NCBI GenBank assembly: GCA_000165345.1
Contig: CM000436.1
Coordinates: 704,001 to 768,000 of the forward strand
DNA: 64,000 nucleotides
Reading direction: 5' to 3'
The translations under genes were made by a program, and so were the position numbers. The first letter of the stretch is position 1; each line of letters opens with the position of its first letter. The notes beneath the pieces were generated by a model that was given only the letters and a program-made list of their open reading frames with translations, had not been told where the DNA came from and did not search any database. Positions 288 to 57,253 of this stretch are shown here, in pieces.

Positions 288-297
288 TTTGGGCGCC
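288..297. promoter_or_regulatory. E2F-like GC box (TTTGGGCGCC) about 500 bp upstream of the first gene
   Basis: GGCGCC-type motif in otherwise AT-rich spacer; matches the over-represented upstream motif class described for Cryptosporidium promoters. Confidence 0.3.
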
Positions 298-14221: not shown

Positions 14222-14228
14222 TGGCGCC
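14222..14228. promoter_or_regulatory. GGCGCC box in divergent promoter (insulinase-like gene and SET gene)
   Basis: TGGCGCC in the 250-bp spacer between divergently transcribed genes. Confidence 0.35.
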
Positions 14229-31176: not shown

Positions 31177-31183
31177 GGCGCCC
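31177..31183. promoter_or_regulatory. GGCGCC box (plus TTGCATG at 31164) about 720 bp upstream of the giant gene
   Basis: TGGCGCCCCCC is a GC island in AT-rich sequence. Confidence 0.3.
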
Positions 31184-53753: not shown

Positions 53754-55640
53754 ATGAGCATATATATATCTAATGATTATTCTGAGCCTAATTGTAATGT
53801 TCTACCGGATTGTAAATACAGTTTGTGCTACGTAAACTTAGCTCTAAATTCTCAAAAAATTGGGAGAAAGGGGAAATTTCAATCTAAAAGTTTTGAGTTC
53901 TTTGTTACCTTATACAAAAAGAATTTATTAACTGACGAGGAATTACAAATAGGAAGTTGCAGAATATTACCTTCGAATTATTGCACGCCATTTGAAAGGA
54001 ATTATTGTACAGTTTATTTTAATTTTTTTTCAATAGATGAATTAAAAGAATTTTTGGAAAAGAACGAAATAATTGTAATATTGAAGTTAGGTTTTGGCAT
54101 TAATCATTTTGAGGTGTTGTTTGACGAAACGATAAATTACTTCATCAAACCAGTAACAAGCATTAAGAATGAGTTATTTTTATCAAACAAAAATAACGAT
54201 TTCGAAGTTACTTTTATTGTTAATGTCGAGTGGTTTGCAACAATTCCTAAAATCATTAAAAACAATAGTGAAAACCTCGAAAAGCTAGACAAAAATATTC
54301 CTATCTCTTCGGGCTTAAAGATTGAGAATAAAATCTTTAATATTAATATGATTGATAATCCTAATATGAGTTTGATATATGAAAAAACAATTTGCAATGA
54401 CCCAATTATATCGAAAAAGATAGTTTGTTCGCAACCTATAACGAAAGCACTAAGTAAACATACTATTGACAAGTCAAAAAATATTAAGAACAATTTTTTT
54501 GCACCAAGTATTCACTCTTTGAACAATATAGGCAGTTGGACTGTAAAAATTAAAAATATTATATTGACTGAAAATGGGTTCACGTTTCTTCATGATAAGT
54601 TCCCAAAATATAGACAATCAAAAAGTTACAAGGTTATTGTCCAGTATTGCATTAAAAATGAAGATGGAAAAACTATAACACAAACTAGAAAGCATTGGAG
54701 TATAATGAGTTTTTTAAAGAATTACAATAATTTTTCTATTGATAATAGAATTCCAAGAAAACTTTACTACATTGCAAAAGCAAATATTTATTCTAGAATT
54801 CCTGAAACTATCATCGATAAAATAGAGGAAAAATACTTTCATATTAGTTTTTCGATTCCAAATTCACAAATACTATATGAATCAAAAGTTGATAAAGGAA
54901 ATGCTATTTTTTATGGCATATTGCATCCAAATGAAATTTCTTTAACTAAAGAATCTTTGGTCAAGCTTTATTCAGAGTTTCATAAAAAGAAATGTTTAGG
55001 TTATGCATTAATATCATTCTCAGATATAAAAGAAAAACCTTATGATAGTATAAACCTTCATGATAAAATCGATCGAATTATCGAAACAAAGAATAATTCA
55101 AATAAGAAACAATGCAAGGCGGGCTATTTAGAAGGAATGAGTATTATTTATCTGTATATATACTGGCACATTCAATTTCGGGCAAAAAATGAAAGGAAAA
55201 CACCTGAAAGTATTTTAGTGGAGTTTTATTCAAAGATTTCAAGTTCCAAAACTATTGAAGGAGGAGTAAATGTAACAGGAATGAAGAAGTGTGTAAGCGC
55301 ATTAATACACTCTAATACTGAATTAGCTCATAGTTTGATGAGCTACACAGGCTGTATTCCTGAAAACCTCACATTGTTTAACAACGTTTATGAATTGAGG
55401 TATTATTTACTTTTTCCTCATCTTGAAACATTTGAAAACTCTTGTAATGATATTTTTTCAAATGACAATTCAAAAGTTTTCAACGAATACGAATTTGCTT
55501 ATAAATGTAATGAGTTGGGCATAAGAGAATGCATCTCAATTACTTGGAGAGAAATGATGAAATCATCCTTTGAAGATATTTCTTTGAAAGCTTATAGATC
55601 GTGTTTGCAGCTCTATAAGGTTGAAAATATATTCTTGTAA
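53754..55640 (+). CDS. hypothetical protein (628 aa, no recognisable domain)
   Basis: Long ORF with ATG at 53754; Cys-containing N-terminus; no motif recognised. Confidence 0.55.
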   Translation: MSIYISNDYSEPNCNVLPDCKYSLCYVNLALNSQKIGRKGKFQSKSFEFFVTLYKKNLLTDEELQIGSCRILPSNYCTPFERNYCTVYFNFFSIDELKEFLEKNEIIVILKLGFGINHFEVLFDETINYFIKPVTSIKNELFLSNKNNDFEVTFIVNVEWFATIPKIIKNNSENLEKLDKNIPISSGLKIENKIFNINMIDNPNMSLIYEKTICNDPIISKKIVCSQPITKALSKHTIDKSKNIKNNFFAPSIHSLNNIGSWTVKIKNIILTENGFTFLHDKFPKYRQSKSYKVIVQYCIKNEDGKTITQTRKHWSIMSFLKNYNNFSIDNRIPRKLYYIAKANIYSRIPETIIDKIEEKYFHISFSIPNSQILYESKVDKGNAIFYGILHPNEISLTKESLVKLYSEFHKKKCLGYALISFSDIKEKPYDSINLHDKIDRIIETKNNSNKKQCKAGYLEGMSIIYLYIYWHIQFRAKNERKTPESILVEFYSKISSSKTIEGGVNVTGMKKCVSALIHSNTELAHSLMSYTGCIPENLTLFNNVYELRYYLLFPHLETFENSCNDIFSNDNSKVFNEYEFAYKCNELGIRECISITWREMMKSSFEDISLKAYRSCLQLYKVENIFL

Positions 55641-55758
55641 ATTAAGAAGAGAATTTTGGAAGACAAAGCAATTAACCTAAACTAGATAAGAGCTAGTTTC
55701 AAATTTAGTCTTCAAGATTTGTTTCCCAAAAAATACTTGCAATGCAGTACAAATTTGT

Positions 55759-55853
55759 TCAATTTTTTAGCATTGTATCTTTTTTTTCATCGTTGTACAT
55801 AGGGTCTCCAGAGTCAATACTAGGCTCCTGCTCGCATATTGTGCCTTCTTCAC
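55759..55853 (-). CDS. same mini-gene, exon 2 (after a 45-nt intron 55854..55898)
   Basis: Acceptor CCTTTAG|GT. Continues GEEGTICEQEPSIDSGDPMYNDEKKDTMLKN*. An acidic stretch follows NWG, as in SERBP1 (NWGTVKDE). Confidence 0.45.
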
Positions 55854-55898
55854 CTAAAGGCTTATAATTCAGGTCAAGTTATTTCAAATTTCACTTAC

Positions 55899-56022
55899 CC
55901 CAGTTATATTTACCTGAGCCTCCTTTAATACCAGATTTATTTCCATATGCAGAGCTCTTTGGGTTCATACTATGACGGTCTAGTCTAGTATCCTTGTCAT
56001 GTTTCGGCTTGGAATGCGTCAT
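55899..56022 (-). CDS. SERBP1/HABP4/Stm1-like mini-protein (72 aa), exon 1; not in ORF track
   Basis: Minus-strand ATG at 56022. Encodes MTHSKPKHDKDTRLDRHSMNPKSSAYGNKSGIKGGSGKYNW(G), carrying the family signature DRHS...KGGSGKxNWG. Donor TGGG|GTAAGT (phase 1). Confidence 0.5.
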
Positions 56023-56112
56023 CTCTTTAAGACTCTTAATTTATTTCGGTTAATTAGAAAAAAAATGGCATGCAATCCAAATAGACTTAAGTTGGATAGC
56101 GCAAACTAAAAG

Positions 56113-56119
56113 TGGCGCC
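56113..56119. promoter_or_regulatory. GGCGCC box about 90 bp upstream of the SERBP1-like mini-gene
   Basis: AAGTGGCGCCTAATG; supports an independent promoter for the mini-gene. Confidence 0.35.
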
Positions 56120-56272: not shown

Positions 56273-57253
56273 TTATTTGTTATTAGACTCATTGATTGCC
56301 ATGAAAATAAGGTGAGCTCTACTTTTGTGTTTTTCACTTTCATTGTGATTTTTATCGGGGTGGCAAAGTATTATGGCCTTCCTATATGCCTTCTTTACTA
56401 GCTCTATATCTGACATTAGTTTGGAGAATTCAATAGGTTCCCATTGGGCATTTTCCCATAATACCTGCTGAAGTGAGCTTAGTAAAACGCGAATATCTTT
56501 GTATGAGCCGTCAGGTTTTCTAGACCATCTACTAATTTCTTCAACAAGATCTTCGTAGCCAAAGTTGTCACTCTTTTCGTCATTACTTGATTCCAAAATT
56601 CTTGATTCTAGGACTTTTTGTGAGGTAAATGATTTTTTATTACTTAAAAATTTTGTTTGTTCATCATCTACTATATCAATAAAGTTGGAGTCATCTGAAT
56701 TGTCAAATTTAGTAGGGGTAGGCGCTTGAAATATATTGTTTTGAATTTTAGAGTTAGATCTATCAACATATTCTTTTTCATCAGTTTCGTAAGGCATACA
56801 CATATTCACAGTTTTTGCTTCATAATTTGAATTAACGGATTTTGTATGAATACCATCATAATTTGATGATGAGAAATTAACAAAAACTAGTATTTTTAGA
56901 ATGATTTTAGAGTTATATGGGGTTGCAGTGTCTTGGTCAGTAACTAAGTCGCACCAAACCCATGGATAAATACCGTTGCTATCATGACTCTTATACCTTA
57001 CAGAGATGTCGCAGAGACAATTTTTTGAATAGCAACAACAAAACTTATATTTAGGAATTATTTCTTTTATTCGTTCAAGTGTAATGCTTCTAAAATTTAA
57101 CTTATCTTTGCTTTGAACTAAATTGAATTGCTCTGGCTCATGATATTCCCCAAATCGATTTGCATATTGAATACAATAAAATATATGCTCACTGTTGTGT
57201 TTTTTGATAGAGTCGGTTGAAAGTGCACTTAAACTTTTTTTAATAAAATCCAT
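56273..57253 (-). CDS. protein with C-terminal J-domain (DnaJ-like) and Cys-rich N-terminal half
   Basis: C-terminal ...LVKKAYRKAIILCHPDKNHNESEKHKSRAHLIFMAINES (HPD tripeptide in J-domain context); N-terminal region with CCCYSKNCLC cluster. Confidence 0.65.
   Translation of the reverse strand: MDFIKKSLSALSTDSIKKHNSEHIFYCIQYANRFGEYHEPEQFNLVQSKDKLNFRSITLERIKEIIPKYKFCCCYSKNCLCDISVRYKSHDSNGIYPWVWCDLVTDQDTATPYNSKIILKILVFVNFSSSNYDGIHTKSVNSNYEAKTVNMCMPYETDEKEYVDRSNSKIQNNIFQAPTPTKFDNSDDSNFIDIVDDEQTKFLSNKKSFTSQKVLESRILESSNDEKSDNFGYEDLVEEISRWSRKPDGSYKDIRVLLSSLQQVLWENAQWEPIEFSKLMSDIELVKKAYRKAIILCHPDKNHNESEKHKSRAHLIFMAINESNNK

Follow-up and report, generated by a model that had tools for sequence, protein, structure and literature searches.

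An 8-kDa protein of 72 amino acids (aa), MTHSKPKHDKDTRLDRHSMNPKSSAYGNKSGIKGGSGKYNWGEEGTICEQEPSIDSGDPMYNDEKKDTMLKN, is encoded by a two-exon gene on the minus strand of Cryptosporidium parvum chromosome 8 (GenBank assembly GCA_000165345.1, contig CM000436.1, positions 704,001 to 768,000). The gene lies at positions 55759..56022 of this 64,000-nucleotide (nt) stretch, hereafter the window, and all coordinates below refer to it unless a contig is named. The locus of this mini-gene is a genuine protein-coding gene, and by homology its product is a putative stand-alone ribosome-binding region (RBR), the segment that PDCD4 and SERBP1 place in the mRNA channel of the ribosome. From this likeness we consider it fairly probable that the mini-protein acts as an autonomous mRNA-channel plug, keeping vacant ribosomes silent and protected.

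Gene structure and splicing

Sequence and translation define the following gene model:
55899..56022, minus strand: exon 1, 124 nt, ATG at 56022; Met1 to Trp41 plus the first base of the Gly42 codon (41 codons + 1 nt)
55854..55898, minus strand: intron, 45 nt, GTAAGT...TTTAG; phase 1, within the Gly42 codon
55759..55853, minus strand: exon 2, 95 nt including the TGA stop at 55761..55759; the rest of Gly42 to Asn72

The spliced coding sequence is 219 nt long within a genomic span of 264 nt, in a window of ~30% G+C. Its intron has the donor G/GTAAGT and the acceptor TTTAG/GT (slashes mark splice boundaries) and contains in-frame TGA and TAA codons. The first-pass annotation of this DNA, which proposed the two exons, was exact to the base.

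The predicted junction (55898/55854) is backed by a transcript as well as by comparison among species. In the Cryptosporidium tyzzeri transcript contig L015 (assembly of run SRR33220295) the mini-protein is a single uninterrupted 219-nt open reading frame (ORF), joined as ...AACTGGG/GTGAAGAAGG... at that junction, with exactly the 45 intron nucleotides missing. The possibility that L015 derives from a lineage that lost the intron was ruled out: to either side of the junction the contig matches the C. tyzzeri genome, at 100% and 99.7% identity, and the intron is present there. L015 therefore represents a spliced transcript. This evidence is from C. tyzzeri rather than C. parvum, and the C. tyzzeri intron differs by one base. 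In seven Cryptosporidium lineages the intron measures 45, 45, 46, 44, 46, 48 and 56 nt (range 44–56), and in four of the seven the exons lie in different genomic frames, such that only splicing restores the conserved C-terminal block. The GTAAGT donor and AG acceptor are kept across the Cryptosporidium lineages compared, whereas the intron interior of the four more distant lineages is just 44–63% identical, as against 72–87% for the coding sequence. The coding sequence is under strong purifying selection, with pairwise ratios of nonsynonymous to synonymous substitution rates (dN/dS) among Cryptosporidium of 0.04–0.15 overall, 0.02–0.07 in exon 1 and 0.05–0.31 in exon 2.

It is hardly credible that this is a chance pair of short ORFs flanking a fortuitous GT..AG, with no gene at all. 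Each exon alone is shorter than 60 codons, and scans for bacterial-type promoters and terminators were at chance level, but the spliced transcript contig, purifying selection and orthologues across Myzozoa with a conserved intron position already refute such a reading. The scans, and the lack of an Rfam match at the locus, are irrelevant to a eukaryotic coding gene. Silence of the spacer or a lack of conservation in related species had been named beforehand as grounds for abandoning the gene; the transcript contig and the conserved introns and coding sequences point the other way.

The mini-gene had been described as unannotated, which is incorrect. An identical 72-aa protein is already public in C. 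parvum (CPATCC_0002990 and CPHLJ_8g2855) under the UniRef label 'Hyaluronan/mRNA-binding protein domain-containing protein', and public gene calls use the same two-exon model (span ~264 nt, 71–72 aa). Both the gene model and the domain label are therefore already known. The C. hominis and C. tyzzeri proteins differ from that of C. parvum at one residue, and C. meleagridis, C. ubiquitum and C. felis also have orthologues. For C. felis, the public model HWI79_1129 (86 aa; GCA_014529505.1; L002 3001..3261) probably retains an intron, since it continues through the homologous 48 nt, where no in-frame stop interrupts it; when the conserved GTAAGT/AG sites are used for splicing, the product is 70 aa long and aligns with those of the other species. 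A literature search for cgd8_2855 found no paper, and one linking Cryptosporidium with SERBP1, Stm1, HABP4 or hibernation found, among the papers listed, none mentioning Cryptosporidium.

Homology to ribosome-binding regions and family spread

The mini-protein is bipartite exactly at the exon boundary: residues 1–42 carry a net charge of +6 (isoelectric point (pI) 10.1) and residues 43–72 a net charge of −6 (pI 4.05). Exon 1 encodes Motif 1 (L14-D15-R16-H17-S18, nt 55983..55969), an invariant A-Y-G and Motif 2 (G34..W41, GGSGKYNW, nt 55923..55900), while exon 2 encodes a third block, D55-S-G-D58-P59-M60-Y61, whose DPMY lies at nt 55806..55795. Exon-1 residues R16, H17, S18, Y26, G27, K29, K33 and W41 are invariant within Cryptosporidium. 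In a 15-sequence alignment of the wider family, M1, R16, H17, G35, G37, W41, D58 and P59 are invariant and S18, Y26, G27, N40, G42 and D55 nearly so. AlphaFold2 returned no secondary structure and no fold (predicted local distance difference test score 59, predicted template modelling score 0.11), and the grand average of hydropathy is −1.54; the protein is predicted to be intrinsically disordered.

Searched alone, the C. parvum protein matches a single Pfam family, HABP4_PAI-RBP1 (PF04774), at 15.2 bits (E 0.037) relative to a gathering cut-off of 21.8 bits. All seven of the close Cryptosporidium orthologues match the same family below the cut-off (best E 0.015), the homologues from Voromonas (24.4 bits) and C. 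muris (23.1 bits) exceed it, and that of P. falciparum falls just short (20.9 bits). PF04774, and no other Pfam family, is matched by 14 of 15 family members, and the C. parvum protein belongs to it by transitivity through its orthologues. The profile search suggested by the first-pass annotation thus bore out in part: HABP4_PAI-RBP1 was recovered, with orthologues above the cut-off, but C. parvum alone stayed below it and Stm1_N did not match.

Comparison with structures in the PDB points more specifically to the ribosome. Matches of single sequences or close orthologues were marginal (E 0.24–0.53), but a seven-species Cryptosporidium profile had as its top match PDCD4 residues 100–151 from ribosome complexes, with both conserved halves covered. 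The family profile matched PDCD4 at E 2.7e-4, SERBP1 at 5.3e-3 to 0.1, Vig2 at 0.04 and Habp4 at 0.09, and every one of the 13 PDB matches with E<10 is a known mRNA-channel binder (PDCD4, SERBP1, Vig2 or Habp4). An hhalign comparison with PDCD4-RBR fragments from diverse eukaryotes gave 97.2% probability and E 3.8e-11 over 53 columns that include all three blocks. PF04774 also marks PDCD4 RBR fragments, which means that the model recognises the ribosome-binding motif common to both proteins rather than SERBP1 itself.

The proposal that the DRHS...GGSGKxNWG core is the SERBP1/HABP4 motif pair is borne out by the sole Pfam match and by the uniform set of structural matches. Motif 1 (LDRHS) aligns with FDRHS in SERBP1 and LDRRS in PDCD4, and Motif 2 (GGSGKYNWG) with GGSGSHNWG in SERBP1 and GGAGGKGVWG in PDCD4. 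SERBP1, HABP4 and Drosophila Vig2, the PF04774 ribosome hibernation factors, share DRHS and GGSGxxNWG with the mini-protein, which is identical to human SERBP1 at seven of the nine Motif 2 residues; the SERBP1 segment matched is the part that occupies the mRNA channel of the dormant 80S ribosome (6mte_w). The protein had been described as SERBP1/HABP4-like, but its best match is to the PDCD4 RBR and not to SERBP1, by way of the exon-2 D..DPMYxD that resembles PDCD4 D..DPNYDD and is absent from SERBP1 after NWG. This PDCD4-type block (IDSGDPMYND) is similar to VDVKDPNYDD, and to LDKNDPNYDS in PDCD4 fragments of diverse eukaryotes. In the PDCD4 RBR (human aa 100–143; PDB 8xxl, 8xxm, 8xxn, 9bkd, 9bln) the same three blocks follow in the same order at similar spacing: LDR(R/H)S, GGxGKxxWG, 12–13 residues, then D..DPxYxD. 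The likeness to yeast Stm1 was likewise not upheld: according to the literature Stm1 and SERBP1 are functional counterparts within the mRNA channel, but Stm1 has no sequence match to the mini-protein, with no Stm1 chain among the PDB matches at E<10 and no Stm1_N Pfam match.

In these alignments the mini-protein is a mosaic of a SERBP1-like tryptophan motif and a PDCD4-like exon-2 block. SERBP1, at ~400 aa, has RG/RGG repeats and also long stretches beyond the RBR, and the mini-protein has neither; in the C. parvum sequence we found no RGG and no Pfam match beyond PF04774. Because it is without RGG boxes and the N-terminal parts of SERBP1 and Stm1, it shares a module with the SERBP1/HABP4/Stm1 family without being a full member. 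PDCD4 (469 aa) differs in having two eIF4A-binding MA3 domains and a strand (aa 148–159) paired with the RNA recognition motif of eIF3G, whereas the mini-protein ends 11 residues after DPMY and has no Pfam match to MA3.

A search of 1.84 billion representative proteins with the orthologue profile gave 16 significant matches, 15 of them proteins of 54–149 aa, the mini-proteins. The other, P0042 (1433 aa, ENA contig, E 1.6e-20), was rejected as a bacterial repeat protein that contains SAYTVNDASVTNGNGTYNWT 15 times and scores by repeat summation; it is a cautionary false positive for short glycine-/asparagine-rich profiles. Named members come from C. xiaoi, C. muris (CMU_026890), C. andersoni, C. 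serpentis, Cardiosporidium cionae and the chrompodellid Voromonas pontica. The 15-sequence family alignment then recovered members from Plasmodium, Hepatocystis (with a precomputed PF04774 match) and dinoflagellates. Every Plasmodium species examined has one, a 68–74-aa 'conserved Plasmodium protein, unknown function', that of P. falciparum, on chromosome 12, reading MPNTNKDKNVRLERHSAGKTPAYGDSSVRAGTGKYNWG...IDEKDPMYDSE..., and the dinoflagellate members (PKKDGAGGKYTMG...LDKGDPNYDSE) bridge towards PDCD4.

We define a Myzozoan RBR-only grouping as proteins of 67–103 aa with the pattern M-x(8-14)-R-[LMH]-[DE]-R-H-S...YG...G-x-G-K-x-N-W-G...D-x-x-D-P-x-[YF]-D and a phase-1 intron in the Gly codon of NWG; the C. 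parvum protein shows all of these features. Proteins in this length range occur in gastric and intestinal Cryptosporidium, Plasmodium, Cardiosporidium, Voromonas and dinoflagellates. A 72-aa stand-alone version had been thought unusual, but the family is conserved across Apicomplexa, chrompodellids and dinoflagellates, and standing alone is the conserved state in Myzozoa; the small yeast proteins Stf2 and Tma10 are comparable.

The intron has the same position and phase (AACTGGG/GT, phase 1, in the NWG Gly codon) in every apicomplexan locus examined:
C. parvum: 45 nt, after the first base of the NWG Gly codon
P. falciparum (L016 1501..1900): 184 nt, same position and phase
Cardiosporidium (L017 1501..1915): 190 nt, same position and phase
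Coccidian-like contig (Logan SRR9850963; L018 3001..3405): ~100 nt, same position and phase

Because position and phase are identical in four lineages, the intron predates the apicomplexan radiation. A position shared with vertebrate PDCD4 would have been an argument for orthology, but it is not shared: vertebrate PDCD4 introns flank the WG-DPNY block (exon /GGAGGKGVWG...DPNYDDDQ/), whereas the apicomplexan intron splits NW/G. The apicomplexan intron is retained even in the intron-poor Cryptosporidium genome. A prokaryote-style ORF call on L018 (P0054, 134 aa) reads through the intron.

Three further proteins of 172–176 aa (P0073, P0075 and P0094, from JGI/Logan contigs) have a three-block ribosome-binding region fused N-terminally to a HIT-family domain (PF11969), an architecture that is, as far as we have checked, undescribed.

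A putative mRNA-channel plug and its alternatives

Two 2024 papers based on cryogenic electron microscopy describe the PDCD4 RBR as aa 100–143, made up of a basic Motif 1 and a Motif 2 with a conserved WG, which extends along the 40S mRNA channel between the decoding centre and the entry site (PMC11217289, PMC11310195). In these structures R102 stacks on C1701 and R110 on C1698, K114/K115 touch helix 18 (h18) and W124 fits into a hydrophobic uS3 pocket; the double mutants K114A/K115A and V123A/W124A abolish binding, and the isolated N-terminal domain of PDCD4 binds 40S with an inhibition constant (Ki) of ~21 nM (PMC11217289, PMC11310195). SERBP1 and HABP4 have both motifs and take the same path through the channel (PMC11217289, PMC11310195).

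In our alignment mini-protein residues 14–61 correspond to PDCD4 100–143, with R16 at R102, Y26-G27 at R110-G111, K33 (or K29, depending on the alignment) at K115, W41-G42 at W124-G125 and D58-P59-M60-Y61 at D140-P141-N142-Y143. The PDCD4 residues critical for 40S binding (R102, K114/K115 and W124) thus have conserved counterparts in R16, K33 or K29, and W41. Differences are that R110 is replaced by Tyr26 and that the mini-protein has NWG, as in SERBP1, where PDCD4 has VWG.

From this correspondence we infer both ribosome binding and a role in dormancy. The basic half of the mini-protein would lie in the channel between the decoding centre and the entry site, with Arg16 of LDRHS in the place of PDCD4 Arg102, stacked on the P-site decoding base, and Tyr26-Gly27 at the position of Arg110-Gly111 on the A-site base. 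The conserved lysine would sit where K114/K115 contact helix 18, Trp41 of NWG would enter the hydrophobic uS3 pocket at the entry, and the acidic exon-2 tail with its DPMY would run along uS3 outside the channel. Occupancy of this kind may shut out mRNA and tRNA and so leave vacant ribosomes silent and protected, which would suit a parasite whose oocysts and sporozoites survive long dormancy and then restart translation quickly. MA3 domains, RGG boxes and the N-terminal region of SERBP1/Stm1 are all missing, so plugging the channel would be the protein's sole action: it would neither inhibit eIF4A, nor bind RNA, nor bridge the subunits.

Several observations weigh against an autonomous channel plug. 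Ribosome association of the mini-protein is argued from homology; the C. parvum sequence by itself is below the Pfam cut-off, and its single-sequence PDB search was sub-threshold, returning only a ribosome-bound SERBP1 fragment (E 0.26). The arginine at PDCD4 position 110 is not kept. On its own, the PDCD4 N-terminal domain bound 43S only weakly, and translation was inhibited only when both PDCD4 domains were present (PMC11310195, PMC11217289), which implies that a bare RBR may be a weak inhibitor. A July 2026 preprint assigns the channel density of Toxoplasma ribosomes to a different named gene, TGME49_321680 (PMC13419753). Finally, dinoflagellate-type relatives (the transcripts P0071, P0074, P0076 and P0077, together with P0073/P0075) replace the Trp of the WG motif (KYTMG, KFTFG, KFTAG) while keeping DRHS and DPxYDSE. 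Anchoring by Trp is therefore not shared by the whole of the wider family, and an essential Trp-uS3 contact would mean that these relatives bind in another way.

The same homology could instead reflect a PDCD4-like initiation repressor that binds free 40S or early 43S and keeps mRNA from loading while the parasite grows normally, perhaps as a brake at particular stages, with no part in preservation. Consistent with this, the best profile match is the PDCD4 RBR, third block included, and on the 40S that RBR leaves no room for mRNA, initiator tRNA or eIF1A; moreover, no PDCD4 homologue has been recognised in Toxoplasma gondii (PMC13419753), so an RBR-only protein could cover the role. We nevertheless regard it as improbable, given that the absence of MA3 domains leaves no eIF4A interaction and that the vertebrate PDCD4 intron positions are not shared. 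A selective mRNA- or hyaluronan-binding regulator acting on specific transcripts, as SERBP1 does with SERPINE1 mRNA, is what the Pfam name and the public label imply, but seems very unlikely: the mini-protein has no RG/RGG repeats, which are described as the only recognisable RNA-binding features of SERBP1 (PMC8497785), only the ribosome-contacting segment is present, and PF04774, which also matches PDCD4 RBR fragments, marks a ribosome-binding motif and not an RNA-binding domain.

A general stress hydrophilin, that is, a small, charged, disordered and non-specific protectant in oocysts whose RBR-like motifs do not serve channel binding, would agree with the low hydropathy and the lack of predicted structure. 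Yeast Stf2 has a role in desiccation tolerance. Stf2 and Tma10, 84 and 86 aa long, are small hydrophilic stand-alone proteins with YG...GxGKGNWG, a likeness to the family that we treat as a lead and not as a test. The sequences used match only PF04774 (21.6 bits) and align with the family by hhalign at 89.7% over 26 columns, in Motif 2 alone; they have neither an LDRHS block nor a D..DPxYD block. A literature search on Tma10, Stf2 and the ribosome found no structural or mechanistic paper. A hydrophilin nonetheless appears quite unlikely, as in a non-specific protectant neither R16, H17, W41, D58 and P59 nor the distances between motifs would stay invariant all the way from dinoflagellates or chrompodellids to Plasmodium, a dN/dS of 0.02–0.07 in exon 1 is unexpected for a non-specific role, and the conserved residues are the ones that experiments show PDCD4 to need for binding 40S.

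Genomic context and apicomplexan significance

Two sequence boxes precede the mini-gene:
56114..56119, no strand assigned: GGCGCC, an E2F-like box, 92 nt upstream of the ATG; context AGGCGCCA
56068..56074, minus strand: TGCATGC, an AP2_1-like box, ~50 nt upstream of the ATG; context GATTGCATGCC

The GGCGCC box, which the first-pass annotation had placed 90 bp upstream, is real and conserved, with a copy at the homologous position of every aligned Cryptosporidium locus outside the L010/L011 lineage, and it matches the published C. parvum E2F-like motif 5'-TGGCGCCA-3' (PMC3734150). The window contains four GGCGCC sites relative to 0.93 expected from shuffles (the others at 292..297, 14223..14228 and 31177..31182), an excess consistent with the E2F-like box being a recurrent promoter element of this genome. 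AP2_1-like boxes number 12 in the window versus 4.5 expected. The TGCATGC box of the mini-gene matches the published AP2_1 motif, whose GCATGC core is bound by the ApiAP2 protein cgd2_3490 (PMC3734150), and GATTGCATG is kept in every lineage, including C. felis and L010. E2F-like motifs also occur upstream of ribosomal protein genes (PMC3734150), which hints faintly at co-regulation of the mini-gene with the translation apparatus; the hint is a weak one because the E2F-like motif is the commonest overall (114 of 200 clusters; PMC3734150).

The locus is syntenic in at least eight Cryptosporidium lineages, in which the genes for ribosomal protein L10a, a DnaJ-like protein and the mini-protein follow in that order, the mini-gene being convergent with a 628-aa gene. 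The flanking ORFs in C. parvum are:
53754..55640, plus strand: 628-aa ORF, convergent with the mini-gene; syntenic in all Cryptosporidium species examined
56273..57253, minus strand: 326-aa upstream ORF with a partial C-terminal DnaJ match below threshold

The 628-aa ORF has no Pfam match at all, and 118 nt (55641..55758) separate its stop from that of the mini-gene. In the 326-aa ORF the DnaJ match (residues 282–310, profile positions 13–41 of 63) scores 27.1 bits against a cut-off of 27.8; the length of this DnaJ-like ORF varies from 301 to 341 aa among species. The transcript contig L015 spans the DnaJ-like gene and the mini-gene and runs into the convergent gene, which suggests overlapping or read-through transcripts or an assembly merge. 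Cryptosporidium-like lineages on the ENA metagenome contigs L010/L011 and the Logan contigs L008/L009 and L006 also carry the mini-gene; L010 is the most divergent of these, with 72% protein identity, a 56-nt intron and no GGCGCC box.

According to the Toxoplasma preprint, no clear SERBP1 homologue has been identified in apicomplexans and no PDCD4 homologue was found in T. gondii, yet hibernating T. gondii 80S ribosomes contain an unmodelled SERBP1/PDCD4-like density in the mRNA channel, for which TGME49_321680 is proposed as the occupant (PMC13419753). That protein, proposed as a T. gondii SERBP1 homologue with a conserved Trp for the uS3 pocket, would play the same role as we propose for the mini-protein. 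The mini-gene provides a concrete, sequence-defined candidate for this density, found in Cryptosporidium, in Plasmodium and in free-living relatives. More tentatively, and with somewhat less than even confidence, we suggest that the RBR-only family is the missing apicomplexan channel hibernation factor behind the Toxoplasma density and its Plasmodium and Cryptosporidium equivalents, a minimal and perhaps ancestral plug that preceded the SERBP1 and PDCD4 architectures and gates dormancy and reawakening in oocysts and sporozoites. Within the literature searched, the RBR-only family across Myzozoa, its PDCD4-type third block and the ancient intron that parts the in-channel half from the external half appear to be new.

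At 72 aa the protein is small enough to be synthesised, mutated at R16, K33 and W41 and assayed directly on purified 40S subunits, and its side chains could be fitted into existing maps. If it is not a channel plug, the gene is an ordinary one, already annotated and correctly labelled at the domain level. If it is, the RBR would work as an autonomous module, and the finding would bear on how resistant oocysts and quiescent sporozoites keep their ribosomes intact and silent. The mini-protein is a good candidate for the factor that silences and preserves ribosomes in dormant apicomplexan parasites.

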